From Raillietiella orientalis (taxonomy: Eukaryota): a DNA stretch of 33,552 bases. Below the pieces are notes generated by a model, which made no database searches, was not told the DNA's origin, and saw only the letters and a program-made list of their open reading frames with translations. Numbering within the stretch: position 1 is the stretch's first letter; each line of letters begins with the position of its first letter. The position numbers and the translations under genes are program-made. Location of the stretch: assembly GCA_036172245.1 (NCBI GenBank), contig JAYWIR010000124.1, forward strand, positions 62,001 to 95,552, given 5' to 3'. This document shows, piece by piece, positions 3,101 to 31,836 of this stretch.

Positions 3101-3585
3101 TAGCCGCCGATACGGCGTCCTTCCTCTGGCGTCTTCCGAATGAATGATCTCATCCAATATGTTGAGATCGCCAGCAACAATCACGACGTCCTTGGAAGCA
3201 ACCTTTTCACGAAGTGCTGCATGCAGCGCCTCCGCACAACGATGTTTTAGCCTGTGCGGCCCGTACACGTTCACCAGGATGAGGTGCACAGTAGTGGACC
3301 AGGCCAGTCGTACGCCGATGATTCGTCCGGGTTGGGAACAGAACACTTCCGGAATAGTGATAACCAAGTTGTTCTTGATTAGTACTGCCACACCCTGCGT
3401 GTGCCGTTCTCCCTCGCTGACGAACATCCGCCCGTTGAATCGCCGTTCCAGTTGCTGACTAATCTCGAGACCCATCTTGTGGGTCTCCTGCAGGTACACT
3501 ATGTCTTGTTGTGCGATGATCCGCACAAACCTTTTTCTTTTTTAATGGTCGACCACACCGTTTGCATTGCAGTAGGCGATTCCTT
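119..3585 (-). pseudogene. A1 ORF2: APE endonuclease + reverse transcriptase + C-terminal Cys/His finger, interrupted by several nonsense codons
   Basis: ORF fragments 2438-3526, 1889-2248, 1493-1798, 791-1399 and 539-763 give successive LINE ORF2 motifs. EN begins IAYCNANG near 3580; final TGA at 119-121. Confidence 0.88.
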
Positions 3586-4973
3586 TTCTTTCCTTCCTTT
3601 CTCTTTCCTTTCTTCCCTACCTGTATGAAGCCGTCTTCCGATACCGGGACGGCTTCTTTCACCTTCTTCGGCCTTCCTGCCTTCTTAGGCTGTTCCGCCT
3701 TCTTGGTGTTTCTCTCTCTCACGGGAGAGAGACCTCGAATCCTTCTGCAGTTTGCAAACTCCGAACAGTTTTATTTGGCATGTCCGTGTTTCTTGCAGAA
3801 GGAGCACCCCTCCGGCTGCGGGCAGTTTCGGACTTGATGTCCTACTTTGCCGTAGCGGAAACAACGACACGTTGGGCAAACGCCCGCCCTGTGGCCGAAC
3901 TGCTTGCACTTGGTGCAGAATATCGGTTGTTGCCGGTTACGCACGTTCACTTCCTGGGATTGTTCGTCAAGAACGGCTAATCCAGGGATCACAGCTCCCT
4001 CTTTCAACTTCATTTTGGCGATCATGTCGCCAGAAAATATATTTCCAGAGAAGTTCTGGAATTCAAAGTCCAGAACTTCCTTATACTGCTCCAAAAAGTT
4101 CCAAACCGTTAGTTGCGGTGTGAGGATGGAGATGCCGTTCAGAAACACGGTTGTGTATGGCATCTCGCTAACACCACGAACCATCCTCCCTTGTATATTG
4201 ATCCCCTTCTGGATCAATCGCTCCCTAATCTTTTCACAGTCTGTGAAGACTGTGAACCCGTTGTTTGCTGGTATGATCGCCTCTATGCGATCAAAATTCA
4301 TGTCCGTTTTATCGAGGGACAGATACACCTCCCTGATATTATTGAACTTGATCAGCCCAGTCTTGAAAATGATGGGCTTCACATTCGTCCCTAACTCCAC
4401 GATCGGCCGATCCACCTTTTGGACTTTACCGCATAGCGGCTTCCCGAATTTTCTTGGTGGGTGGACACTCGCTTGTCCAGCCGCCATAGACGCATAGGAA
4501 AAGGGCTGCGCCGCCGCAGCCGAACAAGATGGCGTCTCGCCCTCAACCGCGTGGACGCCCGCGTGTCCTGCCTGGCACGCCGCCGCTCCGAGCGCAACCC
4601 TCGACGTCGCCACCGTTGCCGCCGCAGGCGCTACCTTCCCCGCCGCGGGCACGATCCTCGGCGTCGCCGCCGTGGGCACGACCTCCGCCGTCGTCGCCGC
4701 GGGCACGACCCTTGGCATCGCCTCCGCAGGCGCAGCAAAGCCCGCCGCGGGCGCGATCCTCGGCATGCCTGCCACCGCCTCGCCGTTGCCGCACGTTACC
4801 TCCATGGCTTCCATTGGGGACGACGGTCTCTCCACTCCTCCTCTAGGTGCCTGCTTCCTTACAGCTGGTCTTGCTGCACGGGACCACTGCAGGTCTTTTG
4901 CCGCGATCTCCTCGCCTCTTCTTTTGTAGTTTCGTCTGGAAAACTTCCCCTCTCCGGGCACACACGAGCACAA
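3580..4973 (-). pseudogene. A1 ORF1: gag-like nucleic-acid-binding protein with three CCHC zinc knuckles and an in-frame TAA at 3771-3773
   Basis: CTKCKQFGHRAGVC, CFRYGKVGHQVRNC, CSFCKKHGHAK*NC; FSYASMAA motif. The same frame continues into the Lys-rich segment of ORF 3459-3722. True start uncertain (possibly an ATG near 4814). Confidence 0.8.
4639..4770 (-). repeat. Degenerate 27-bp (9-aa) coding repeats in the A1 ORF1 N-terminus
   Basis: Units such as GCCGCGGGCACGATCCTCGGC; protein MPRIAPAA / MPRVVPAA / TAEVVPTA / TPRIVPAA. Confidence 0.7.
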
Positions 4974-5005: not shown

Positions 5006-6504
5006 TTGAGCCGCGAAGCAAGTTCACCGACTCAGCAGGAGAGGAGCGATCTCCCGTCTGTCAAGAAGGTGACTCCGTTGACGCCTTTTAAAGGCGTAAG
5101 GAAAGCAACGATCCCAGAGAACGTTGCGAAAATCCCGGTGGTTTCCGCAACTACTGTAGCGGAAGCCTCTAAAAATCGCGAAGGCGAATGAAAGGTTGTG
5201 AAGAGCAGAGAAGAAATATCTCCAAAAAAGCTCCGCAACCTCCATCCCTGAGCTCTTCCAAAGGAAAAAGGAGTCGCGCGAATACGAAAACACGCGCGGC
5301 TTGTGCCTCTTCCCAGGAAGAAGCCAGCGCCTTTAACGCGTGCAAGTCCGCTTCTGTGACCGCCGAGAAGACCATTCCGGTGCAATCGGACGGATGCAAG
5401 CGCACGTCGATCGTGCGAGCATCAGACTCCGCAAAGGAGTTCCATAGCGTTGCTGAACGACGCGTTACTCACGCGGGAGCGAGTGCTTGCAGGGCTGAAG
5501 CCATGAAACGGACACACTCGCTGCAGAACGGCGAGTGCTCACCCCGGAACGCACAGGTTCTGCACCCGGGGAGGAGCACCCGATTACGTGCAGCACAGTT
5601 GAGGCCGGTGGCCACTGCGCCCTCCAGCCCGTCGTGCTGCTTACTGCCCGCTCGCCGGGTGAGGCGAGCACCACGGCCTCGCTTTCCCAGCCATGATGAG
5701 GGCAATCGCGTCTTCTCGTCGTGTTGCCGTGACGTCTTGGAACGTGAACGGGCTCCAACACAAGCAGAAGAGGCGACTAGTGGCTCACGCTTTGCGCGCC
5801 TTCGACTTGACGCTCCTGGAGGAGATTCACAGCATCTCCGAAGAGCAGGCTGCCGAAATCGAACGGCGCGCGGGCGAAACGCTACTTTATAGGTGCGACG
5901 TTGCACGTACGTGCGGCGTTGCTTTCCTCGTGCGAGGAACTTTGGCGGGAGCGGTGCGCTGCGTTCGTTTCGACACGGAAGGCCGAGTGGGACAGCTTGT
6001 ACTCAAGTGGTCCTACTCGATCGACCTTGTGGTAACCAACATGTACGCGCCGAGCGGTGCTGGACGATGAACCGAAAGGATTGAGTGCTTCGGTACCCTT
6101 CAAAGCCAGTGGTTCACTCGATTTCACCCTTCTGTGGCCCATCTCATTGCAGGGGACTTTAACGTCCACCTGCTTTCCAAGAATAGCTCCCACAAAAGGG
6201 AAAAGTTGCTAGCGGAAGTGATGTGCGCGTCCGTGGACGCGTGCAACTTGTTCGCTAGCTACCCTGTTATGGCAGCAACGCCAGAATACGTATACCTTGA
6301 TGAACACTTGCTCTCTCGAGTGAGTCGGAGAGGTCCCTTGCCGTCCCTGCTTTCACACCAAAACAGGCTCGAGTTCGAGTTGCCCCCGCCAGGCAAGGGG
6401 CCTCCAAACTCTTTTTGGAGGATGCCTGCAGACTGAATAAGCCACCCGGATGCGGTGGAGTATCTTCACCAGTACCTCCTCGGCTTTGTTATAAGTGTGC
6501 ACGA
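5006..6504 (+). mobile_element. Element D fragment: ORF1 C-terminal tail + APE endonuclease (decayed)
   Basis: 5693-6436 encodes SWNVNGL, LLEEIH, NMYAPS, HLIAGDFN and WRMPAD, preceded by a low-complexity ORF1-like tail. Cut at 6504 by the 3' end of element C. Confidence 0.82.
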
Positions 6505-8954: not shown

Positions 8955-10949
8955 ATGGCAGAAATGCCTGAGGACACCGTGATGGATATAGGAGGGGGAG
9001 AGGCTTGCTCCTCTCCCCAACCCACGGAGGCGGGGGCAACCGCACCCCTGAAAAAAAGGGCAACCGCCGCCTCGGAAGAGAGGGCAAAGACCCCCTTGAA
9101 AAAGGGGGCAAAAGCCCCGCTGGAACAGGGTGCAACCGCACCCTTGAAAAAGGGGACAACCGCAACCCTGGAAAAGGGCGCAACCGCCTCCTTGAAAAAG
9201 GGGGCACCTGCACCCTCGAATGCGTCTTCGGCATCGCCGAAGACCTGGAGTTCAGTGCCTGCAGCCCCATCTTCTGCAGCCCTCGCCGAGCAGAAAGCCT
9301 ACCTGGAGCAGGGATACAAGGCGTCCCTGATATACAAGGAAGGCAATCTCTTTGTCGGGAACACCGCTCGCAACTTCGAAAGGGAGTTGCAGCGGTTGAA
9401 CGTAAAAGGGGAAGACCTGGAAGGTCTTTCCGTGTTGAGTGGTGGTCTGCGGGTGAAGCTGACTTGCAGAAATGCAAGCCTTGCTCAACACCTCCTGAAT
9501 ACGCCAATCACACTGGAAGGCCGAAAGATTTTCCCGGTAACGGAGGATCGCTCCGTGGTGACGCACCTCACGGGCGTCACCCTCCGCATGTCGAAAGCCG
9601 ACGTGCAGGAGGAACTCGGAAAATACGGAACGGTTCACGCGCTATGGCCCAAGCCCAACGTCTTCCAGAGTTACGGAAGACTGTTTAGTGGCATGGCTGG
9701 TGCGCGAGTAACCGTCCACGAAAACGGTGGGCTACCCCACAAACTAGACGTCGGCAACGAGACCGTCGAAGTCTGGTACGTGGGCACGCCCAAGTACTGT
9801 GGACACTGTGATGCCACAGGGCACCTGAAAAAGCGGTGCCCTCACATCCAGTCTTTCCACTGTGGAGAGAAGGGCCACCTCCGCAAAGTGTGCCCGAAGC
9901 GCGAACCCCCGAATCCCGCTGCCTTGAAAAAGGCCAAAGGGAAACGCGCGGAGGCTACGGAAAACCCTGCGAAGGCACCCGTGAGGCGGAACCCACAGGC
10001 GGAGCCCGAGCCCGTACAACAAACGCCGGTCGTGGAATCTACCGACGACGCTCAAAAGAGCGAAGGCTGGCAGAAGGCGAAGCCTAAAGCTAAGAAAGCA
10101 AAGAAAACCGAAGGATCGAAAGCGGAACCCGCGACGTCTTTTTTAAATAGGACACAACGCCGCGCGTTGATCCGCGAATGTTCGGTCGCTTTGGAGCGTG
10201 TGGAGGTACCCGAGACCGCCACCGGGGAAGATATCCCTCGCGTCGACGCTGACGATAACGCGATCACGGAAGGCGCACCCTCTGTGCAAACAGAGGGGGA
10301 ACCGCGCGACGCGCTCGCCGCGATCGACGAGGCCGCCTTCCAGCAGGCGGCGGAAGAGCTCGCGGCCGAACTCGCCGACCGTGAGAACGGCGCGCGAAAG
10401 GCCTTGCGAAGGCCGACCGCGACCAGGGCACCTCCGACAGGTGACCACGACCCGGATGCCGGAAGTGCGTCCTCTTCCACGGAGGCGCCTCCGAAGAAGA
10501 CTGGACGGAAGTGCAAGAATCCCAAGAGGCACATCCCGACGAAGAGCGAGGGGGACGCACCGACAGCCGAGGGGGAAGCCGGCAGCGTGGGAACGGAGGG
10601 AGGAATTTTCCCACCCTCCGCCACCGAGCAGCCGGCCACCCCCATGGAGGAGGGAGAGCAGGTAGGGCATTGCCTCCCCCTTCCACCGGTGGAGCCTGCG
10701 AAGATGGTCATGGAAGAGGGGGAGCAGACAGCTGAGAACCGCTCCCCCCTGCCGTCCATCGCAGTCGAGAAATCGGCCCCCATGGAAGAGGGGAAGCAGG
10801 TGCGTGAAGCATGCTCCCTTCAACCGTTGCAGTCCGCCGAGGAATCGGCCCCCATGGAGGTGGGATAACCGCTGGGCGGTGCCCCCATGCCTCCATCCGT
10901 CCCGCCCAACCAGGTGGCGGGAGCCCCATTGCCACTTTCCCAGGAGTAA
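8955..10949 (+). CDS. B1 ORF1 gag-like protein, two CCHC knuckles (second degenerate); open to TAA 10866-10868, ancestral stop probably 10947-10949
   Basis: ATG at 8955 aligns with the B2 ATG at 16721. CGHCDATGHLKKRC, SFHCGEKGHLRKVC. The downstream peptide PPSVPPNQVAGAPLPLSQE* aligns with B2 PPRVPPQQVADAASPFSQD*. Confidence 0.85.
9033..9218 (+). repeat. 24-bp (8-aa GATAPLKK-like) tandem repeat, about 7.5 copies
   Basis: GGGGCAACCGCACCCCTGAAAAAA and variants; not expanded in B2. Confidence 0.85.
10640..10865 (+). repeat. About 69-72-bp coding repeat (PMEEGEQ units x4) in the ORF1 tail
   Basis: TPMEEGEQ, MVMEEGEQ, APMEEGKQ, APMEVG; related units in B2 near 18355-18500. Confidence 0.75.
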
Positions 10950-13900
10950 CACCTGGGCTCGCCAGTCGCCGTCGATTAAGGGTGGCCTGCTGGAACGTGA
11001 ACGGGCTGCGCGACGACGGCAACAGACGGGACACGGCCGCCACCCTGCGTGACTTCGACCTGGCACTCCTGCAGGAGATCCACGTGATCACCGCGGAGAA
11101 TGCCCAGGACATAGAAAGGATCGCAGGGAGGCGGCTGGTTGTCACCCGGGTGCGCCGGGGCGTTTATTATAAACTATCCGGGAACAGGGTTCCTGGACAA
11201 AGGGGAAAACAAGAGACGAAGGGGGTGGGATCCCCGACACGCAGGTCGGTATGCCGAAAGTCCGGAACGGGAGGAAAGAGACCACAAACACACTACTATA
11301 TAAAAAAATTAGAGAAAAATATGGAGGGCAGGGGACAGGGGTCTTTGGTAAATCCGTTCCTTCCTTTAAAAACCGGCGATCGATGCCGGCGATCTCTCTC
11401 CTTACGCCCTGTGGCAGATGGGCCCACTGGGCAGCCGACGACATGTTTGCGCTGGCTAATCCGGTGGGCTGACGAAGGATGGCCAGCTTCTCCAACTCTC
11501 GGTGGGCCTTGTCGATGGCGCGGATGGAACACACGGTTGCAACGACAGCACCCAATGACAGGCCGCCTGGCTGGAGAAGCGGCGCATCAACTCCCTCGCG
11601 GTGTCCCCCTGGTGCAGGAGAGCTGAGGCTAGCCTCCGCCAGAGACCTAGAAGAACACCGCAGTCCAGGAGCAGGTGCGGGAGCGTTTCCAGGGCTGACA
11701 GTGCGTCTTCGAGGGGGGTGACGAACAGGCGGGTCCACTTCTCCTGGCTGTTGCACACCTCATCCACCGTGCAGTACGGGGAGAGGTGAGCGCAACGGAG
11801 TTCCAGGAGGGAAACATCCTGGTGCTTTGCCCAGCCATGCAACGGTTCCTGCCGCCAGGCTTGAAAGTTCGTTGGGCGGCAGGAGATCCATTCCTGGGCT
11901 TGCAGGAGCCGATACAATGGTTTCAAGGGGAAACCAAAGCTTCTCGTGGCGCGCTCCGTGTGCGGCCGCAGCGACAGAAGTCCATCGCTGCCTGTGCAGC
12001 GCCGCAGAAGCAGGCGCGCGGGAGCACACCACGGAGTGGACCAAAGGTTGGTGCACAGGGCCAACATCCGAAGCTGCACCTGCAGCTCGATTCTCTCCAG
12101 CGTCAGGATGCCTAAGCCAGCATCCCGACGCGGAGCCGCCAAGTCTTTGAGGCGGATCCTGGACCTCGCAGGTCCCCACAGAGCGTTCCTCAACAGGCTG
12201 TGCGCCTGGAGCTTGGCCGAGTAGGGGGGCGGGCAAACAAAAAGCAGGGGGCGCAAGAGAAGGGCAACGAAGGTGTTCCATATCGTGGCCCGCTCCGGCA
12301 GGACGAACCTGCCATGGTGGAACGGGCTCAGGGCATTCGAAGCCTTCCGAAGGCAGTCCGACCACACTTCCACTGAGCTGATGTTCCCCAGCGGAACGGA
12401 CGGTTGATGGGGCGGTTGGATGGGGGACGGTTAATGTGGCAATGCGGAACCCGATACATCTGCGGCGTCGCGTTTTTTATGAAGCCGGCAGTCGACGCAG
12501 CCGTGAAGGGCGTGCGCTTCGACGAAGCCGGTCGTGTCGGCCAGCTGATTCTCAGGTGGTCCGATACGTTCGACCTCGTCGTAACAAATGTGTACGCTCC
12601 GAGCGGTCCTACCAGGTACCAGGAACGTAAGGCGTTCCTGGAAACCCTGAAGCGCGACTGGCTGGTGGAAGCGAACGTGCGCGTGGCTCACCTGATAGCG
12701 GGAGACTTTAATCTCCGCCTGCTATCAGGTGAGCCACATGCACAGGAACGGACGGCTAACGAGTTGTGCACCGCCATGCGCACGCGCAACTTGTTAGGGG
12801 ATCTTTCGGAAATGGTCAGCAGCATCGACCACGTCTTCCTGGATGTCGACATGTGTTCACGGGTCGGCAAACGGGGGAAAGTTGCGTCAGAGCTGTCTGA
12901 CCATTCCCGGCTGATATTCGAGGTGTGCCCGCGCGACACGGGCCCCCCATCCAGGGCGTGGCGTCTGCCTGGGGACTGGACGCGACTCTCAGGTGCGAAG
13001 GAACACCTTCGCGAATTCCTGAGAGGCGTCACCCTCCGCAGTCTCAAAGATTGGGACCTCTTCAAGGCCTCGGTCCGCGAGTTCTGCGAGGAGTTCCCCC
13101 TGCACCGCCTGCCCCCCAGATTTGGGGAGAAGGCTCGGAACCATAGGGCCTATTTACAGGCCCGCCGGTACGAGAGGACCCCCAATGTCCGTCGCCTGGC
13201 AGAGTGCCGAGCCGGGGCCGAACGTCAAGCCTAGCAATGCAAATCGGCCAGCTTGCTGGACGACCAGGGCCGGGAGCACTCGGCTCCGGCTAGAATACGG
13301 CACCTCGTGCGGCGTTTTTATTCCTCCCTTTACGCCAGGGCGCCCCCGGACCAAGATGCCTCTCGGCGCTTGCTTCCAAACGGTGCCCCGGCAATAGGGG
13401 AGGAGGAGAAGGAAAGCCTCGACGAGCCTTTTACCACCGGCGAAATTCTCGCCGCTATCAAAAGGCTCAAGAGGCGGAAAGCATCAGGGGAGGACGGCCT
13501 GCCTGCGGAGTTTTTTCAATGCTTCGCGGCAGAGTTGGCACCCCTGGTGCTTGAGTTGACAAGGCTGATCCGAGATGAAGGCGATGTACCCGCCTCGTTT
13601 CGGTCAGCCAGAGTGATGCTCCTTCCGAAAGGAGGAGACCTCAGGAAACTCAGCAACTGGCGTCCGATCACAATTGTGAACATGGACGCCAAGTTGATCG
13701 CCGGACTGTGGGCTTCGCGTCTGGGGCAGGTGGCCAATTCCATAATTAGCCCGGAGCAGACCTACTCTGTTCCCGTGCGAAGTATGGAGGCCAACCTCTT
13801 CTTCGCGAGCACATGGTTTCATGTGCAGAGTAGTCAAGAAAAGGAAGAGGGAAGTTTTCTCAGCCACGCTTTGGGAGCGTCAGCCGAGCAGGGACAGGAC

Positions 13901-15831
13901 TCCCAGGTGGGGAAGGGAGCCCTAGCGATCGCAGTCGATCTGCACAAAGCGTTTGACTGCGTGGACCAGGATCTCCTGCTGGAGCTCCTGGGACGCAAGG
14001 GCTTCCCTCCCTCCCTACTGACCTACCTGCGCTCTTGCTTTCGCAGCGCGCTGATCAATATCTCTTTCAGAGTTCAAATGGCGTACGGCGTGCCGGTACG
14101 GCGGGGCATACGGCAGGGCGACAGCCTCAGTCCCCTGCTCTTTAGCACGTACTTTGAGTTGGTGCTGAGAGCGTACAGGGTGACTTTGGCCCCCTTGCCG
14201 AGATCGTGCCCCGGCACGCCCGCCGTAGCAGCATATGCCGACGATCTTTTGCTTCTGTTGCCGATGTCCACCCCGGCGATGGCGGTCGGGGATTTCTTCG
14301 ATCTGCTTAGCCGCGGGACCGGACTTACGGTGAACAGGGCGAAGTCGACGGTGGTACCAGTCGGTGCGGCGTGGGCTGGGCAGCAGGACTGGGTCCGCTT
14401 GGGAATCCCCACGGCGAGGTGCTTGAAGTACCTTGGTGTGCCGTTGGGGGACTACTCCCCTGCGGAAGCGTGGTCTGGCTGCCTCCAAAATGTGGAAACG
14501 GCGATCGGCCCGTTCTTGGAAGACAAGTTTCTCCTTCCGGAACGGGCCGCGGTATGGAACGCGTTCGCGGCTCCTATCCTCCGCCCCCTGCTTTTTGTTT
14601 GCCCCGTCCCCAGAGAGTTGAAAAAACGGACGAAGGACCTCCTGAGGATTGCCCTTTGGGGAAGAGGGAGGCTCCCAGTCCCGTTGAAGGACTTGTGTGC
14701 TCCACGTCGGGATGGCGGTCTCTGCCTCTTGACGATGGAGCGAGTAGAGATTCAGCTGCGGTGGCGAACCCTCGCCATCGCTGCGAAGTTATGGAGCACC
14801 CCTTGGTGCGTTCCGGCCCGACTCCTTGCCAGCCGTGTATCCGGAACGGAGGGTCTCGCGTCCTATCTTCTGTGCCGTGGCAGGAAGATCAAGAGATGCG
14901 GATTTCTCCTGGGACGCATGGAAACTCTGGCTAAGGAAAACGGCTGGATGGTATGCAGCCCCGCCAACTCCTCCGCATGGCTAGAGGAGACAGCTGGCAC
15001 GTGGGCGAAGATTAATGAAAAGAATCAAGAGATGTGGAACTGCCTGCGACGCGGCGCCTATTCCCGCTGCACTCTGCGGAAGATACTCCAGTGTCCCGCG
15101 AGAAGCACGTGGGCAGAGACAACCTCCCTAGCTACGGCGATGCCCTTCCTGAGGAGGGCGCTCTCCAGCAGCCGCAAGCCTAGGTGGCAAGTCTCCTGCC
15201 GCATCGCAGGCAAGGAGAAGTTGATCAGCGGCTGGTCCACGGGTGAACTGGCGGACGCCAGTACCCCCAGTGTCCAGCCAAGAGGACTTCAGAGATGGGG
15301 CGAGCTACTCGGCATACAGCCGGATGACCTGAAGTGGTTCCGGTATTAATTGGTTCTAGGATCCTCCCCCTGAAGTGGCAGGAGTTGGCGCTTCTGTTGT
15401 TGCATTGGGGTCTACCCTGCAACGCACGCCGCCACCACTGGACCAGGGGTCGAGTAGATCCTACCTGCATCAGGTGTGGGGAACGGGAAACTCTCCCCCA
15501 CCTCCTTGTTGATTGTGCTGCACTCAGACCCCTGTGGGAACGTCTTCATGCCTCCCTACGGATCCAGGAGGGCAGCCAGCCCAGATACGTTTTTCGGCTT
15601 CTGTTCGTGCATGATGCCCTGCGTCCAGCCGCTACCCTGGCTGCACTTTGCTGCGTACGCGGGATTGTGACGTGCTGGAGCAACGTCGGAAGACCGAGCC
15701 ACGACAGGGATGCCGTCGTACTTGCAGTCCGCTACCTGCGGATTGTGACCAGATGGCCCCAACTGGGAATTATACGGACGGACCTCGAGGGCATCCTGCG
15801 AAGGATGGACCCTCCTCCCAGTGGTCAGTGA
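10949..15831 (+). pseudogene. B1 ORF2 (APE-RT-Cys finger), split by J (11139-12397), with a TAG at 13232 and a frameshift near 15340
   Basis: ACWNVNGL..LLQEIH (10985-11085); NVYAPS, AGDFN, IDHVF, SDH (ORF 12404-13234); 698-aa RT ORF 13253-15349; CIRCGERETLPHLLVDC in ORF 15334-15831. Confidence 0.92.
11139..12397 (-). mobile_element. Element J: 5'-truncated LINE (post-RT region + 3' UTR) inserted antisense into the B1 endonuclease
   Basis: ORF 11456-12373 is homologous to the post-RT region (PERATIWN, APRRDAGLG, ETLPHLLLDC). Ends AATAAACGCCCCGGCGCACCCGGGTGACAA. Confidence 0.88.
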
Positions 15832-16720: not shown

Positions 16721-18598
16721 ATGGCAAAGTTGCCAGACGACACCGCGATGGAAGTAGGCGTGGGGACGGCTTGTTCGTCCCCACAGCCTACTGGATCAGG
16801 GGCATCCGTCCCGGAATCATCCCCGACGACGCCCAGGTCATGGAGCCCAATGGTGGCCGCGCCTAGCGTGAAAGCCATGGCCGAGATGAGAGCCTACAAG
16901 AAAGCAAGGTATAAGCCCTCGCTAGTCTACAAGGTAGGCAACCTTTTCGATGGGCGAACTGAACGCGCCTTTACGAAGGCGCTGCAGAACGCCAATATCT
17001 TCGAAAAAGATCTTGACGGCCTCTCCGTCCTCAGCGGTGGGCAGCGGGTCGAGGTGGTATGCAAGGATATCACCTTGGTAGGACGCCTGATCACCGACCC
17101 GCTGATCGCTGATGGTCGGAAGATCTTGCCAGTCACGATGGACCGCTCGGTGGTGGTACATCTCACTGGGATCCCTAGTCGCATGACTAGGTCAGCGGTT
17201 CGTGATCAGTTGCAAAAGCACGCAGAAGTGCATGCGTTGTGGCAGAAGTCCACGATTTTACAAGGCTACAATAGCATTTCCGCAGGACAATTTGCGGCGC
17301 GTATCACCGTAAAAGAGGGTGGTGCGCTTCCCCACATGCTATAGGTCTGTCGAGAAGCGGTGGACCTGTGGCACGTGGAGAAACGCCAATTTAGCGGCTA
17401 CTGCAATGCAGTAGAGCATCTAGGAAAAAGGTGCCCCAACATTGTGTGCCACCTATGCAAGGAAAAGGGTCACGTTCGGCGCGTGTTCCCCAAGCGCCTC
17501 ACCCCAGAGCCTTCTGCCGCCAAAAAAACTCAGGGAAAACGTGGAAAGCTGGTAGAAGGACCAACTCGCGAAACTGGCCGTTCCCAACTGCCAGCCTACC
17601 TTCCTCCCGTACAGACGTCGGAAAAAAGAGCTCCCGTGAACGCGGAAATGGAGGAGGCTTGGCAGCTGGTTCAGGCCAGAAAAGAAAAAAAAAAGAAAGT
17701 GATGCCAGAAGAAAAGTCGGAGAAGAAAACTGCCGGCAACAAGAAAAAAGTCGCGCCGCTTTCAAAAAAAAAAAAACTCCGCCCATGCTCGGTGGCACTG
17801 GAGCGCTTAGCCGTTCCTGCCGAGGCCGCTTGCGGCAATGTTCAGCAAACAGCTAATGCGGACGCGATGAATACTCTCGTGGACGAGCCCATTCTACGTT
17901 TAGAGGGTGAGACGCGATACTCGCGCGCCGACAGCCAGGACGGCGCGCTCGATAATGTCGCGGAGGAGCCCGCGGCAACGTTCGCCGTCAGCGATAACGC
18001 CGCGTTCGATAAGGTCGCGGAGAAGCCCGCGGCAACGGTCGCCGCTGGCGAAGACGCGGTTTTCGAGAAAGCGGCGGAGGTGCTCGCAGCAGCGCTCGCC
18101 AAACGCGAAACCCCGTCGCGAAAGGGCATACGGAGGTCGCCTCCGACGAAGAAGGCCCCCGCAGGTGAGTGCGACCTGGGGGCCGGAAGCGCATCCTCCT
18201 CCTCGAAGGCACCCCCCAGGAAGTCGGGACGCAAGTCCCAGAAACCCAGGAGGCGCCTCCCCTCCACCAGCGAGGAGGAGATGCCGGAAGGAAGCGGCAG
18301 CGTTGGAATCCCGGATCGGGAACATCCACGTCCGGATGCAGTCAAGTCGGTCACCCCCATGGAGGAGGGTGAGCAGGGGGGTGAAGTCCTCCCTGCAGTC
18401 GCCAAACCTGAGTAGCCCGAACCCATCGAGGAGGGCGAACAGGTAGGAACGACTCCACCTGTGGGTGATCCGGCCGACGCGCCGGCACCGATGGAGGAGT
18501 AGAAAAAGGTGCCTACAGTACCTGTCCCCCCTCCCCCTCCACCAAGAGTCCCGCCCCAGCAGGTGGCGGACGCCGCATCGCCGTTTTCCCAGGACTAA
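16721..18598 (+). pseudogene. B2 ORF1 gag-like protein with nonsense codons
   Basis: Colinear with B1 ORF1; CHLCKEKGHVRRVF knuckle; internal TAGs at about 17342, 18413 and 18500; terminal TAA 18596-18598. Confidence 0.85.
17939..18100 (+). repeat. 57-bp (19-aa) coding triplication in B2 ORF1
   Basis: DGALDNVAEEPAATFAVS / DNAAFDKVAEKPAATVAAG / EDAVFEKAAEVLAAAL. Confidence 0.75.
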
Positions 18599-21500
18599 CA
18601 CCTGGGCTCGCCAGTCTCCGTCGGAATCGCGCGGCTCGTTGGAACGTCAACGGACTGCGCGACGACGTCATCTGGCGAGATACGGCCGACACTCTGCGTG
18701 AGCTCGACCTGGTGCTGCTGCAGGAGATCCACCTGATCACCGCGGCAGACGCCCAGCAGATCGAGACGATCGCAGGGGGTTGGTTGTATTGGCGATGCGG
18801 CCTCCGCAACACCTGCGGGGTAACGTTCTTCTTGAAGCCGGCCATCGACGCTGCCGTAAAGGGCGTGCGGCTTGATGACGACGGTCGGATCGGTCAGCTG
18901 ATTCTCAGCTGGTCCGACTCGATCGACCTAATCGTTACAAACGTGTATGGCCCCAGCGGCAAACAGGGGTACCGCGACCGCACCAGGCTGCTGGAATCCC
19001 CGAAGCGCGACTGCCTGGCGGATACCAATGTGCGAAAGGCTCAATTGATAGCAATAGATTTCAATCTCCGCCTGCTAACAGGTGAGGCTGAAACACAAGA
19101 GAACGCGATGAACGAGTTGTGCGCCGCCATGCGTGCGCGCAACTTGTTCGCGGGTGAGAGGGGAATGGTCCGCAGCATTGATTACGTCTTCCTCGACGCT
19201 GACCTGTGTTCACGGGTCGGCGAACGGGGGAGGGTTGCGTCGACGTTGTCGGATCATTCCCGGCTAATTTTCGAGATGCGGCCTCGCGACATAGGAACGC
19301 CATCAAGGGACTGGCGTCTCCCCGGGGACTGGATGCGCCTCTCAGGTGCAAAGGTGCACCTTCGCGCATACCTGAGAAGTGTCACGTTAAAAAATCTCCA
19401 GGACTGGGACCTTTTTAAGGATTCGTTTTGCGAGTTCCGCGAGGAGTTTGCGCTCGATCGCCTGCCCCCCGGATTTGGCGAGGGTCCTTGCAACCATCGG
19501 GCCTATTTACAGGCCCGTCGTTACGAGAGAGCACCTAATGTCCGTCGCTTGGCCGAGTACCGCGCATGGGCTGAACGCAAAGCCTGGCTATCCGGGTCGG
19601 CCAGCTTCCTGGACGACCAGTGCCGGGAATTTTCTCTTCCGGCGTCGGTACGGCATCTTGTGGGTAGATTTTATTCATCCCTCTACGCCAGGACGCCACC
19701 GGACCAAGATGCCTCTCGACGCTTGCTACCGGATGGTGTACCGTCAATAGGGGAAGAGGAGTCGGTAAGCCTCGACGAGCCTTTCACTACCGGGGAAATT
19801 CTTGCCGGTATCATAAGGCTCAAGAGGCGTGAGGCGCCAGGGAAGGACGGCTTGACCGCGAAGTGCTCTCAGTGCTTCGCGGAAGAGCATGCAGCCCTGC
19901 TGCTCGTGTTGACAAGGCTGATCCGAGACGAAGGCGATGTTCCCGCCCCGTTTCGGTCAGCCAGAGTGAGGCTCCTTCCAAAAGGGGGAGACCTCAGGAA
20001 ATTCCACAACTGGCGTCTGATCACCATCGTGAAGACGGACGCCAAGTTGCTAGCAGGACTATGGGCTTCGCGTTTGGGGCAGGTGGCAGAGTCCATAATC
20101 AGCCTGGAGCAGACCTATGCTGTTCCCGGGCGAAGTATGGACGACAACCTCTTCTTCGCAGGCACGCTAATGCAGCTGCAAAGGAGAGAGAAGAAAGGGA
20201 AAGGGAAAATCGGCAACCGCACATTGGGGCCGCTAGCGTGGCTGGGAAGGGACACCGGGGCGGGGAAGGGAGCCCTAGCGATCGCAGTCGATCTCCATAA
20301 GGCGTTCGAATGTGTAGACCATTAACTCCTCTTGGAGCTCCTGGGTCGCATGGGCTTCCCACCCACCTTGATTTTCTACCTGCGTTCTTGCTGGCGGAAC
20401 GCGAGAATTTCGATCTTTTTGAGCAGTCAAAAGGTGTATGGCCTGCCGGTGCGGCGGGGCATACGGCACGGAGATAGTCTCAGTCCCCTGCTCTTTAGCA
20501 CCTACTTTCAGTTGGTGCTGAGAGCGTACAGGGTGACTTTGGCCCCCTTGTCGAGCTCGTGCCCCGGCACGCCCGTCGTAAGTGTTTATGCCGACGATCT
20601 TCAGCTCCTGTTACCTATGTGCACCCCGACGAAGGCGGTCAGAGATTTCTTCGACCTACTCAGCCGCGGGACCTGACTGCAGGTGAACAGGGCGAAGTCG
20701 TCGGTGGTGCCTGTTGGTGCGGCGTGGGCAGGGCAGCAGGACTGGGTCCGTTTGGGGATCCCCACGGCGAGGTGCATCAAGTACCTTGGTGTGCCGTTGG
20801 GAGACTTCTCCCCTGTGGGAGCGTGGTCCAGCTGCCTCCAAAAAGTCGAGACGGCGATCGGCCCGTTTCTGGAAGGCAAGTTTCATTTGCCGGAACGGGC
20901 CACGGTTTGGAACGCCTTTGCGGCCTCCATCCTCCGCTCCTTGCTTTTTGTTTGCCCCGCGCCAGGAGTTGTTAAAAAGAGGAAGAAGGACCTCCTTTGC
21001 ATCGCCTTTTGGGGCGAGGGGAGGCCCCGAGTACCTTTGAAGTACCTATGCGCTCCTCGTCAAGACGGCGGACTTAGCCTCCTGACGCTGGAGCGCGTGG
21101 AGAAACAGCTGCGATGGCGTACCCTCGCCATCGTAGCGAAAATGTGGAGCACCCCGTGGTGCATTCCGGCTTGCATCCTTGCCAGTCGTGCGTCCCGATG
21201 CGAGGGACTTGCGTCTTTTCTTCTGTGCCCCGGCCGGAAGATCAGAAGATGCGGCCTACAGCTCGGGCGCATGGCATCGTTGGCCATGGAGAACAGCTGG
21301 ATGATTTGCTGCCCCGCCAACTCCGCCTGGCTGGAGGAGGACATCGGAACGTGAGCAGTGGTGAATCAGAAAAGCCACGTAACGTGGAATCGTCTCTGAT
21401 GCAGCCCCTACGCCCGCTGCACTCTGAGGAATCTCCTCGAGAATCCAGCTAGAAGCATGTTGGCAGAAACAACCTGCCTGGCTACGGCGCTGCCTTTCCT

Positions 21501-22400: not shown

Positions 22401-25017
22401 CGTCGAACCCCGCAGGCAACAGGTTCACAGGAAACTCTTCGCAAAACTCCCGGACCAAGCGCTTAAAGCGATACCAGTCCTGAAAAGTGTGCAAGCTGAA
22501 AGTTCGTATGAATCCGCGGAGATGTTCCGCGGCTCCGGGAAGTTTCAGCCAGTCCCCTGGTAAACGCCACGCAGTGGACGAGGGACCCCTGTCGCGTGGT
22601 CGGAACTACTGCACGATTTGGTCATGGTCCGACAGTTCCGACGGTAACTTGCTGCGCCTGCCCACGCGTGAGCAGAGGTGCTGGTCAAGAAACACGTGAT
22701 CTATGCTGTTGGCCATTCCCGGATCTCATGCGAACAAGTTGTGCGTGTGCATCTCTGCGCACAGCTCGTTAACGCGTTCCCGAAGTGTATCGGACGCACC
22801 TGAAAGCAGGCGAAGATTAAAGTCACCTGCGTTCAGGTGCGCTTTGCGCACTCTTGCTTCGTCCAGATATTCGCGCCTCAGGGTAAGGAAGAAATCTCTC
22901 CTTGCCTTAGCCTTTAGCGCGTCGCTGCCGCTTGGAGCGTACACGTTGGTAATGACCAGATCAATGAAGTCGGACCACCTGATGGTCAGCTGCCCGACGC
23001 GACCAGCACTATCGAACCGTACGCCCTTTGCCGCGGCCTCGACAGCTGGCCGAAGCAGGAACGCGACACCGCAAGTATTAACGGTGCCGGAACGCCACAG
23101 CAGCCGTCCACCCGAGATGCGCTCGATCTCCGTTGCTCGGTCTGCGGAGATCACGTGGAGCTCTTGCAGTAGCACCAGGTCCAACGATGCCAGGGTGGCG
23201 ACCACGTATCGCCTCTTGCCGTCATTGCTCAGCGCGTTGACGTTCCAACAGGCAATTCGCAGACGGCGGCAAGCGGCGATTCCCGACATTATGGCTGGGA
23301 ACGTGGCGTTGCAGCACCTGTCAACGGACGGGTGGGAGGGGTGAGTAAGGGGACCGCGGCCATCTCAGGCACTTGAAGCACCTGGGGCACAGATTTTACC
23401 CTTTCCTCCTCACCGAGTTCGCGGCGTAGGGTTACTTCTGGAGGCGACTCCCCGGAGTTCGCCACTTGGTTCGCACCCTCGCTTGCCTCGATTATTTCTC
23501 CCTTTTTTACGGAGGAGGTGATCTTCCGGCTAGCCTTCGTCATGCGACTTGGCTTCGAGAGGGGTACCGCGATGCCGCAGGCTAAGGTTTCCTTCTAGGC
23601 GGCACAGTTCCTATGCTCCGACTTGGAGATCGGACGCCTTAGGACCTTTTCCGATGCCTTGTAGGGACGTTGCAGGGACGCAGCGAGCTCGTCTGCCGCT
23701 TGTATAAAGGCGACGTCATCGAGCAGGCGTTCAGCGACGGACGCCACCGCCGGGTCGATAGCCTCCGGCAATGATTTGCCGGAGGGCTGAGATTCGGCAG
23801 CGACGAGTGCAACTTTGCCGTTCCGTTCGACCGCGGGAATGCGCTCGATGACGACGAAGAAGCGTTTTATTTTTTCGCGACGCGGCAAATTCTCGCTGCG
23901 TTTGGCGAAAATTTCTTTAGTTCGTTCCTTGAGGTTTTTCTGCCTCTTGGATTTCACTACCTGCCATCCAGGTTCCGGACCGTTCTCCTCGACCTTGAAC
24001 GCGTTTTCCGGGATCTCGGAGCTTACATTCACCTCGGGTACGATAGCTTCTTTAGTGGCGGTTCCCGCTCGCGCTGCTGAAACAATTAATTTTTTTTGCC
24101 GCGCGCTTCTTCGCATTACGTGCGGACGCGACGCGGACTTGATTTTGCTGGCACAACGAAAGAGTGTGCCCGGGTTGCTTGCATTGCTTGCACTGCAAGT
24201 GGGGGCACCTTTTTTTCAGGTGACCTGAAGTGCTGCAATGCCCGCAGAAATGCAGCTTAACAACATACCAGATGTCAACGGATTCGGCGTTGACCTCCAG
24301 CTTGTTTGGTAGGGAGCAACGCTCGCGGACCGTAATGCGCGCGGAAGCCATACCGCAATTCAGGAGATCGTACTCTCAAAACGGAGTCGGCCTTTTCCAC
24401 AACGCGTCGACGGTTCCAAATTTAACTAATTCCTTTCGGAAAGCCTCTTCGGCCATCCGGAAGGTGATTCCGAGGAGGTGGATCACGATAGATCTATCCT
24501 CCGTGATGGGGAGGAGCCGGCGATTTCCTAAAGGAACAGGTGTACGGAGCAGACGCTGGGCAAGACTTCCTTCTTTGCAAATCACTTCAACGTACTGTCC
24601 ACCGCTCCTGATGGTCATTGCCAAAAGCTCATTCTCAGGAACTTTCAGAGAGTTTCGCTTTTCATCGCTTTCTAGAAAGCGCGTGCACACTCAAAGTTAT
24701 AAAGGTTCCCTATCTTATAGAGAAGCGGGGGATTGTACCCCTCCTCCAGGTAGGCTTTTAAATCAGCCGCAGCCGCTTACGTTGGTGCCGCAGCCACGGA
24801 ACTCCAGCTTCTCCCTAGCGAGGGAGTCGCTTCTGTGGGGGCGGTTGCCCCCACATCCATTGATTCAGGAGGCGACATAGACGTCGCCCCCTCCTTAACA
24901 TTGGTGGTGGTCCGAGGAATTGCTGCCTAGCCACCACCGAATCCACTGACACACCAAGAAAAAAAAGAAAAAAAAGAAAACTACAAACGCTCAAGAGCGA
25001 AACAAAAACCCGTCCGC
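22401..25017 (-). mobile_element. Element E: 5' half (5' motif, ORF1 from ATG near 24878 to TAA 23289, APE 23289 to about 22401), decayed
   Basis: GCGGACGGG-TTTTTGTTT-CGCTCT start; CGHCSTSGHLKKRC/CKQCKQPGHTLSLC; IACWNVNAL, LLQELH, NVYAPS, AGDFN. Confidence 0.88.
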
Positions 25018-30766: not shown

Positions 30767-31836
30767 ACTCGTATGAAGGCGAACGTTGAAATCGCCTGCA
30801 ACCAGATGGGCATTCCTCACGCCTGCTTCGGTACAGCCAGTCGCGCCGGAGGGCAAGGAAAAACACTTTTCGTGCCCTCCTGGTCATAAGGTCCGCGCCG
30901 CTCGGTGCGTACACGTTCGTGACGATCAGATCGATCGAGTCGGACCACCTGAGAGTCAGCTGGCCGACACGACCGTGATCGTCGAACTGCACGCACCGAG
31001 CCTCCGCCTCGACGGCTAGCCGAAGCTGGTAGGCGCAAACCCAACTTTTCGGTCTCCAAAATCTCCACCATAGCCGCCCTTTGGAGATCCGTTCGATCTC
31101 TTGCGCTTGTTCTGCAGAGATCACGTGGATCTCCTGCAGCAGCGCAAGGTCGTAGGACTCCAGAAGCGCGGCCATGTCTCGTCTCTTGCCGGCGTCTGTC
31201 ATGCCGTTCGCGTTCCGAACAGCGATGCGCAGACGACGGCGGGAGGAGAATCCCGGCATTACTGCAGGGAAGATTAAGGTGTGGGGGAGACCGCCTCCTG
31301 CGAGGCGGGCGGGATGTCCATACGGGTTTCAGCCTTCTCAGGCACCTGAGGCACCTGTTCGGCCTCCACCCCCTCCATCTCCTCCGTGTCCGTGCGTGGG
31401 AGTCTTTCGGGCGACAAGTCCCAAGAGCTTCCCACGCTCATGGCACCCTCGCTTGCGGAAGCTATCTCTTCCCCTTCGACGGGGGAGACGAGCTTCCTAG
31501 GCTTTGTGGATTTACGTCCAGCCTTCTTGCGCGGTGCCGTGGAAACGGAGGCTGCGCTTCCGGCCTCCACCTCGGGGTCGGAAGTGGGGGACACCTGAGG
31601 GGAGGCTTGACGCCTTACGGCCTTCTTGCCAGCCTTGGAGTGTTCTGGCTGCAACGAGGCAGCCAGTTCCTTCGCGGCTCGCGCGAAGGCTACGTCATCG
31701 ATGGTGGTGTCGATGACGGACGCCGCCGCCGGCTCGCTCCCCTCGCTCTTGACAGAGTCAACAGAGGGGTTGTCGTCGGTAGCGGTGAGTTCTTTTTCGC
31801 AGCGGTCGGCAATACGCTCGACGACAACGGTGCACT
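30767..31836 (-). mobile_element. Element H fragment: ORF1 tail + N-terminal APE
   Basis: IDDVAFARAAKELAASL and AGSAAS..PRKKAGRK match B1/B2/E ORF1 tails; from 31259 IAVRNANG, LLQEIH, NVYAPS, GDFN. Confidence 0.83.

Follow-up and report, generated by a model that had tools for sequence, protein, structure and literature searches.

Loss of the ORF2 AUG at a stop-start overlap in a clade of LINEs from Raillietiella orientalis, with predicted hairpins on both sides of the ORF1 stop

The DNA analyzed here is a stretch of 33,552 nucleotides (nt) from Raillietiella orientalis (GCA_036172245.1, contig JAYWIR010000124.1, positions 62,001 to 95,552, forward strand), hereafter the window. Within a host assembly of 210 Mb, the window is a nest of decayed two-ORF (open reading frame) retrotransposons without long terminal repeats (non-LTR), namely long interspersed nuclear elements (LINEs) of the apurinic endonuclease/reverse transcriptase (APE/RT) type, L1/Tx1-like. 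We compared five of their ORF1/ORF2 junctions, from families D, B (copies B1 and B2), E and H. In family B, the AUG that overlaps the ORF1 stop in sister families is replaced by ACA, and ORF2 evolved under purifying selection from the junction onward. The features are as follows, in window coordinates (SL, predicted stem-loop).

8955-10949, forward strand: ORF1 of copy B1 (CCHC zinc knuckle; zf-CCHC taken from the homologous ORF1 of locus L163), with the family stop TAA at 10947-10949
10811-10813, forward strand: AUG in the ORF2 frame, 126 nt upstream of the junction, a sub-lineage trait
10900-10922, forward strand: SL1, upstream hairpin within the final ORF1 codons; its end is about 25 nt short of the stop
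10939-10957, forward strand: SL2, CCCAGG/CCTGGG with the stop in a 7-nt loop, -9.7 kcal/mol
10947-10951, forward strand: TAACA, the ORF1 stop overlapping ACA (AUG in sister families, by pentamer comparison)
10960-11031, forward strand: SL3, hairpin of about 70 nt in the opening codons of ORF2; it begins 10 nt past the stop and carries WNVNG (10991-11005) at its tip
11052-11118, forward strand: SL4, second downstream hairpin, in the LLQEIH codons (codon-preserving null and consensus fold)
11138-12421, reverse strand: antisense insertion of 1.28 kb that consists of the 3' part of a related LINE and disrupts the B1 endonuclease
12422-15831, forward strand: remaining B1 ORF2 (endonuclease, RT, C-terminal part), its frame broken by a stop and a frameshift
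18548-18765, forward strand: B2 junction, with SL1 at 18548-18571, SL2 at 18588-18606, TAACA at 18596-18600, SL3 at 18609-18677 and SL4 at 18703-18765
5650-5865, forward strand: D junction (AUG-type), TGATG at 5694-5698, SL1 and SL3 present, SL2 weak
23120-23346, reverse strand: E junction (AUG-type), TAATG at 23291-23287, SL1-SL4
31090-31316, reverse strand: H junction (AUG-type), ORF1 stop at 31276-31274, TAATG at 31261-31257, SL1-SL4

The endonuclease (PF03372, residues 19-224) and RT (PF00078) domains scored above cut-off in ORF2 of loci L153, L157, and L165, as did the CCHC zinc knuckle (PF00098) in ORF1 of L163 and L165; PF13966 (C-terminal zf-RVT) gave a hit below cut-off in one of three ORF2s. 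The closest database proteins are 22-30% identical, many carry PF13966, and one is named Transposon TX1. These best database relatives, used in place of a reference tree, point to a position of the window LINEs near the L1/Tx1 group. The B1 copy of the window is dead, with a premature ORF1 stop (TAA, 10866-10868; GAA in 27/30 nearest copies) and the insertion at 11138-12421.

For each window junction, the 30 nearest genomic copies were compared, the window copy being counted in the B1 and B2 sets. Of roughly 930 junctions genome-wide, 261 copies were read; 183 of these are colinear and were used for a protein tree, and 159 of the colinear copies fall into 16 subfamilies of at least three copies each. 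An initial tree built from DNA had been set aside because nested insertions distorted it. Junction positions are numbered so that the initial T of TTCCC is position 1 (window 10937 in B1); the ORF1 stop is then at 11-13, ORF2 codon 5 at 13-15, and WNVNG begins at 55.

The five stop-start pentamers lie where a first-pass annotation of this DNA had placed them: TGATG in D (5694-5698), TAACA in B1 (10947-10951) and B2 (18596-18600), and, on the reverse strand, TAATG in E (23291-23287) and H (31261-31257). Its proposal that ACA in place of AUG is a trait of family B is borne out by the nearest copies, which carry TAACA in 30/30 cases for B1 and 29/30 for B2 (the other being TGACA). The AUG-type junctions have TGATG in 27/30 (D) and TAATG in 29/30 (E) and 30/30 (H) nearest copies. 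Genome-wide, the exact junction pattern occurs at 548 URAUG and 382 URACA places and at none in reversed controls; by itself, the heptamer TTCCCWG shows no enrichment in the window (15 occurrences vs 12.1 expected). Family-B copies with ATG had been named as a possible refutation. None was seen among the 13 places with a base other than C at position 14, which read ATA (six), AAA (six), or AGA (one). A base other than A at position 15 was found in family-B context at 17 places (15 ACC, one ACG, and one ACT). Many of the TAACC copies (15 places; loci L260-L262) are dispersed on large contigs, and their overlapping codon is mostly AUA; the three ACC copies that were read all retain SL1-SL3, and they form at least two variant groups.

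AUG is present at codon 5 in 10/10 sister subfamilies with this junction and overlaps the ORF1 stop in nine of them. The URAUG pentamer was found in 9/11 AUG subfamilies (H and M end ORF1 upstream) and family B has UAACA, the stop-start overlap being retained in 14/16 subfamilies overall. For H, the UAA of TAATG had been read as the ORF1 stop, which proved wrong: ORF1 ends 15 nt earlier, at 31276-31274, in 30/30 nearest copies (28 TAA and two TGA), and one H copy has a 611-codon frame closing at that earlier stop. In H2, the sister of H, ORF1 still closes at the pentamer, and in the distant family M (four copies) ORF1 ends 14 nt before the AUG, TTCCC being present nonetheless. Because H and M keep TTCCC with an earlier ORF1 stop, the motif does not need ribosomes arriving from ORF1.

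The in-frame AUG upstream of the B1 junction, at 10811, had been described as not shared. It is indeed absent from B2, B3, B4, and B6, yet 12/30 nearest B1 copies have it; since an in-frame stop follows it before the junction in 15/30, it is a sub-lineage trait only. As had been noted, B2 has no upstream in-frame AUG; the 10811-type AUG is missing there, and no upstream AUG is common to the ACA subfamilies. Family N (L169:2398-2517, reverse strand) has TCCGCAGCAG TGATG at its junction and another in-frame AUG, located five codons ahead of the one in the overlap; its sequence can still form a stem, which has a GUGA tetraloop and one bulged A.

On the protein tree, the five ACA subfamilies form one clade (ultrafast bootstrap, UFBoot, 100) and the other 11 subfamilies are AUG; a single loss of AUG is therefore the simplest reading, on a root (family M, branch 3.97) that is itself unreliable. 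Metagenome and database searches revealed no junction of this type in relatives outside the host genome. The metagenome relatives (80/117 hits kept, 22-34% identity) are uninformative, since TTCCC is at the site in 0/80 and the flanks examined gave no RT hit. A DNA sequencing run that may be the source (X1, share 0.10) contains related copies and adds no independent support; among the sequencing runs listed, none of RNA contained them.

The ORF2 without AUG bears the marks of a used gene. The ratio of nonsynonymous to synonymous substitution rates (dN/dS) between ORF2 majorities of the ACA subfamilies is 0.19-0.34 (10 pairs, dS 0.32-0.87), similar to that of AUG subfamily pairs (0.14-0.36, eight pairs), and the corresponding ratio of differences (pN/pS) in the ACA subfamilies is 0.28 for codons 5-18, 0.24 for codons 32-60, and 0.30 for codons 61-174. 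Conservation begins abruptly at the junction, the 13 codons upstream of it being unconstrained in both frames in the ACA subfamilies. The first AUG common to all five is codon 182, downstream of the selected codons, and no near-cognate codon is common to all five. Fourteen B-type regions were chosen for long frames out of 20 regions; in six of them, ORF2 is open for 1199-1257 codons from the junction, with an in-frame stop 39-57 nt upstream, and the first AUG lies at +522 (five copies) or +201 (one), past WNVNG. LINE proteins are usually cis-preferring, which we assume in concluding that ORF2 protein (ORF2p) was produced. Because ORF2 was selected upstream of the first shared AUG and shares no near-cognate codon, these comparisons indicate that ORF2p was made without AUG, from the junction or just upstream. 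It is extremely unlikely that family B lacks an ORF2p of its own, or starts a short one at a downstream AUG, and borrows the ORF2p of AUG families, or that its RNA is edited to AUG. None of the 14 B-type regions is shown with both ORFs complete, as borrowing would allow, but the purifying selection over ORF2 codons 5-174, at dS up to 0.87, largely refutes it. Editing followed by copying in cis should yield genomic copies with AUG or ACG, and the 30 exceptions include 0 ATG and one ACG vs 382 ACA places (the patterns differ slightly).

The TTCCCAG motif fits the consensus of 3' splice acceptors (YYCCCAG), and an upstream exon could then provide the ORF2 AUG. We consider this very unlikely. YYCCCAG is found in 72/96 ACA copies read and in most AUG families, but TG or GG replaces AG in 21/96 ACA copies, and the TG form has propagated as a sub-lineage of 15 copies that have linked diagnostic sites and include L151, with an ORF2 of 1257 codons. 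A genome-wide pattern for ORF2 starts lacking the CC gave six places, five point-mutated and one joined to an antisense piece of ORF2, and no 5' exon; exons whose ends carry C at both positions would escape this pattern. Spliced transcripts using an acceptor had been named as a possible refutation; AG is not invariant in propagating lineages, and the pattern gave no processed copies.

The hairpin over the stop (SL2) had been put forward as a conserved signal. Its stems fold as written, with the B stem (10939-10957) at -9.7 kcal/mol, and it is weak in D as claimed, and also weak or absent in L and M; it is not one conserved helix. AUG families pair in the register i+j=23 and ACA families in i+j=24. 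The stems of AUG families fold at -8.3 to -10.6 kcal/mol and, with CA substituted into them, at only -4.3 to -5.1 kcal/mol, and ACA-family SL2 reaches -7.4 to -9.7 kcal/mol in the shifted register. The shift looks like compensation in these folds, yet it is one event on one long branch. The suggested covariation check gave no two-sided change among 15 representative copies and no excess in 29 diverse copies. Among the 30 nearest B2 copies, 16 have a U.U mismatch in SL2, and the propagated B2 sub-lineage (15 copies, linked sites) folds with this mismatch at only -5.1 kcal/mol.

Codon constraint bears directly on SL2. Junction positions 1-9 and 11-20 are invariant in 5/5 ACA majorities, and further in 4/23 four-fold sites are. 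Against a null that keeps the ORF1 codons up to the stop, SL2 passes in 10/16 subfamilies; with the F-P..P-G codons of ORF2 kept, it passes in 1/15, so that the stem does not withstand the codon explanation that had been raised against it. On these nulls, SL2 would be real only if the F-P..P-G codons are untranslated, and its status hinges on where ORF2 starts. As the key structure, the small stop-codon hairpin is thus not sustained: it has no covariation and is the weakest of the elements. An anticodon-arm mimic (6-bp stem, 7-nt loop) was also considered for SL2 and was dropped because the second base of the loop varies freely and a shared partner triplet was not seen.

A sliding codon-preserving scan of 12 family majorities detected stronger peaks on either side of SL2. 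With the codon-preserving null, SL3 (+24 to +95) has p<0.05 in 16/16 subfamilies (mean z -4.3) and SL4 (+116 to +182) in 15/16, the latter with two-sided changes in the consensus fold, while SL1 (-45 to -12) beats the null in 12/16. Three control windows pass in 0, 1, and 3 of 16 subfamilies. The p-values are generous, because the windows were picked after the scan and the subfamilies are related. On 15 real copies, 92.9% of the SL3 cells are paired and 6/16 pairs have two-sided changes, a covariation score reached by 0/500 shuffles and 0/6 slid controls; the consensus structure was derived from the same alignment of 15 copies, which are close to subfamily majorities. SL1 is constant in position and differs in sequence among families, and its column-wise consensus was not recovered even with the 15 copies. 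The better supported predicted structure is therefore SL3, about 70 nt long and covarying, and not SL2. An extra folding peak lies inside ORF1 at about -85 to -55 (z < -1.5 in 7/12 families at offset -85); a wider control window across it did not pass.

On balance, we think it somewhat probable that ORF2 is reached by structure-assisted, position-defined termination-reinitiation without AUG. A ribosome on the bicistronic RNA would halt at the ORF1 stop, SL3 (about 10 nt downstream) and SL1 (about 25 nt upstream) would hold it against leaving or sliding, and it would restart, in the -1 frame, at whichever codon is positioned on the stop. The distance of 10 nt from the stop to SL3 is about that to the leading edge of a terminating ribosome, and the gap between SL1 and SL3 is about one ribosome footprint. 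One clade could have swapped AUG for ACA (ACC in some copies) and still replicate, because position would pick the start. We infer that the structures act on translation and that restart is coupled to termination; the first codon would be ACA or an overlapping NUA codon, presumably with initiator methionyl-tRNA (Met-tRNAi). For an active LINE clade without ORF2 AUG, the first-pass proposal of structure-assisted reinitiation tolerating a non-AUG start thus remains the best reading, with SL2 removed as its key structure.

Several points weigh against termination-reinitiation. ACA and ACC fit the initiator anticodon at one position only. Ahead of the start, the invariant TTCCCAG encodes F-P if read in the frame of ORF2, which also fits upstream translation, and its sub-lineage changes (CCA/CCT/CCG) fall at the third position of that frame. 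No conserved upstream complement of the host 18S helix 26 loop (assigned with the help of the local fold), as in termination upstream ribosome-binding sites (TURBS), was found; candidates for TURBS motif 1, 40-90 nt upstream of the stop, occur in 3/16 subfamilies at no shared place. RNAalifold predicted no consensus pair on 32 and 29 diverse single copies, several of them decayed or interrupted, and the consensus surfaced only with the 15 copies near subfamily majority, SL1 and SL2 shifting register. SL3 is not stronger in ACA (-38.6 to -50.2 kcal/mol) than in AUG families (-31.1 to -45.1 kcal/mol), and SL3 and SL4 could instead serve packaging or cis-binding. Finally, in the hypovirus CHV1, with its UAAUG pentamer, UAACG and UAAGC mutants are reported to have impeded translation (PMC2699510, consulted in part), so that system needs AUG.

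An unlikely alternative is a -1 slip of a share of the ribosomes at or just before the ORF1 stop in the ACA clade, stimulated by SL3 and giving an ORF1-ORF2 fusion in which F-P-G-[VIL]-T, or the end of it, is read as codons. In 5/5 ACA subfamilies ORF2, which is in the -1 frame, stays open over at least 39 nt upstream, the ACA/ACC (15 places) and CCA/CCT/CCG variants are silent in the ORF2 frame, and with codons 1-8 taken as ORF2-coded SL2 needs nothing else (1/15 significant). SL3 begins 10 nt past the stop, although there is no shift site to measure from, and -1 recoding has been reported for ORF2 of Dictyostelium TRE5-A and TRE3-A (in the parts of PMC5911963 consulted). Against it, we found no slippery heptamer near the junction in the five ACA subfamilies; the sole ORF1-frame candidate is poor and unshared (B4, at -30), and X XXY YYZ gave five loose, scattered candidates in 16 subfamilies, none shared. 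The last ORF1 codon varies (GAG, GAA, GAC, GAU), H and M retain TTCCC though ORF1 closes upstream of it, and the AUG on the stop of sister families is the mark of a restart. The missing heptamer and the early stops of H and M leave -1 recoding, offered in the first-pass annotation, without support in its classical form. Also unlikely would be an entry of the ACA clade into ORF2 without initiator tRNA, a ribosome held at the ORF1 stop between SL1 and SL3 stepping back one base, while terminating or directly afterward, and continuing to elongate. If true, this would be a LINE recoding signal without AUG, near-cognate codon or slippery heptamer, evolved from a UAAUG restart of which AUG forms survive in the same genome.

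Internal entry, in which SL1-SL4 place a new ribosome at the junction independently of ORF1 translation, appears rather improbable. The four hairpins are kept among subfamilies over about 220 nt, H and M tolerate a stop 14-17 nt ahead of the AUG, and entry resembling that at internal ribosome entry sites (IRES) is proposed for ORF2 of non-LTR elements in the portions seen of PMC3894237 and PMC11485995. However, 14/16 subfamilies keep the overlap, for which independent entry has no need, the most strongly supported hairpins are located past the start, within coding sequence, and a conserved partner for the SL2 loop was not seen in alignments inspected by eye (pseudoknots were not computed). Mechanisms other than those discussed have a small share of our expectation.

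The 3' strand of the final helix in host 18S rRNA could pair almost fully with the conserved motif (C/T)TTCCCAG(G) (window 10933-10945 with its homologs; L197). The motif lies 7-8 nt before the start codon, a Shine-Dalgarno-like spacing, and the junction ranks among the best 1-33% of local windows for this pairing. Such pairing is speculation and no evidence of function: it is one conserved motif seen 16 times, and that strand of the rRNA self-folds at -13.9 kcal/mol.

A similar antisense LINE piece is present at the same site as in B1 (about +200, in the GGRL codons) in about 20 B copies, other subfamilies included. In 22 B copies, another insert occupies a position around +480, in the GDFN codons; the break in H/J copies is near +170. 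The loci concerned, besides the window, are L008, L010-L012, L014-L018, L022, L024, L260, and L261. This recurrence suggests site-specific insertion into endonuclease genes of kin, or amplification of copies that were already interrupted. An M-like element (window ~3541-3600, reverse strand) has lost the end of ORF1 and the start of ORF2 by internal deletion and has no junction. At L153, L159, and L163 (junctions at 4000 and ~9660), B2-type elements follow one another head to tail, repeating every 5.66 kb or so, and L171-L190 (G000:C5:2340001-2540000) contain 36 ORF1/ORF2 junctions of many families in 200 kb, on both strands. Dense LINE clusters like the window are possibly centromeric or subtelomeric.

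AUG-independence of LINE ORF2 translation is known from engineered human L1 mutants. The hundreds of UAAUG and UAACA junctions of one family in one genome are a natural paired experiment; the same genome also has a clade that has long persisted under purifying selection without the AUG, another in which the stop has moved by 15 nt, and a hairpin that covaries and keeps a constant spacing to the stop. Gene calling based on ATG truncates the endonuclease N-terminus in such elements. We found no report of a natural LINE clade replacing the UAAUG start by a non-cognate codon, in a search that covered few subscription papers.

Among known systems (sources consulted in part), SART1 of Bombyx mori couples its ORFs at UAAUG (PMC5972666, PMC10275272, PMC3894237) and needs structure downstream of the stop-restart site (PMC5972666, PMC10275272). 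Like SART1, the elements described here are two-ORF APE-type LINEs with a UAAUG/UGAUG overlap and a downstream RNA structure, predicted in our case; unlike SART1, a whole clade has UAACA, a hairpin lies upstream and another over the stop, and the system is known from sequence alone. In human L1, ORF2 translation is AUG-independent and thought to depend on ORF1 translation (PMC5972666, PMC11485995, PMC5009743). ORF2 is likewise obtainable without AUG here, but human L1 keeps its natural AUG and a 63-nt spacer, whereas in R. orientalis the AUG was lost naturally, there is no spacer, and AUG sister clades are present in the same genome. LINE frames without a start codon are already known (PMC5911963): in the dictyostelid TRE5-A, TRE3-A, and NLTR-B, the ORF2/RT frame is entered without a normal start, as here, but these have long overlaps with reported -1 frameshifting or separate ORFs, and the parts consulted describe no stop-start pentamer. 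The hypovirus CHV1 shares the pentamer, and its tolerance of short stop-start insertions (PMC2699510) parallels the spacing of family H. In caliciviruses, two or three positions of the start codon can be altered without abolishing restart (PMC5972666, PMC10275272), and Met is still inserted (PMC5972666). As in calicivirus and influenza B TURBS, our junctions have a stop-start overlap and a candidate stem upstream of the stop; unlike in TURBS, the dominant structure is downstream, and SL1 (12/16) is nearer the stop and lacks motif 1. In those viruses the start is chosen by position, with two or three changes tolerated, and a position-chosen start is what we propose for the AUG-less LINE clade.

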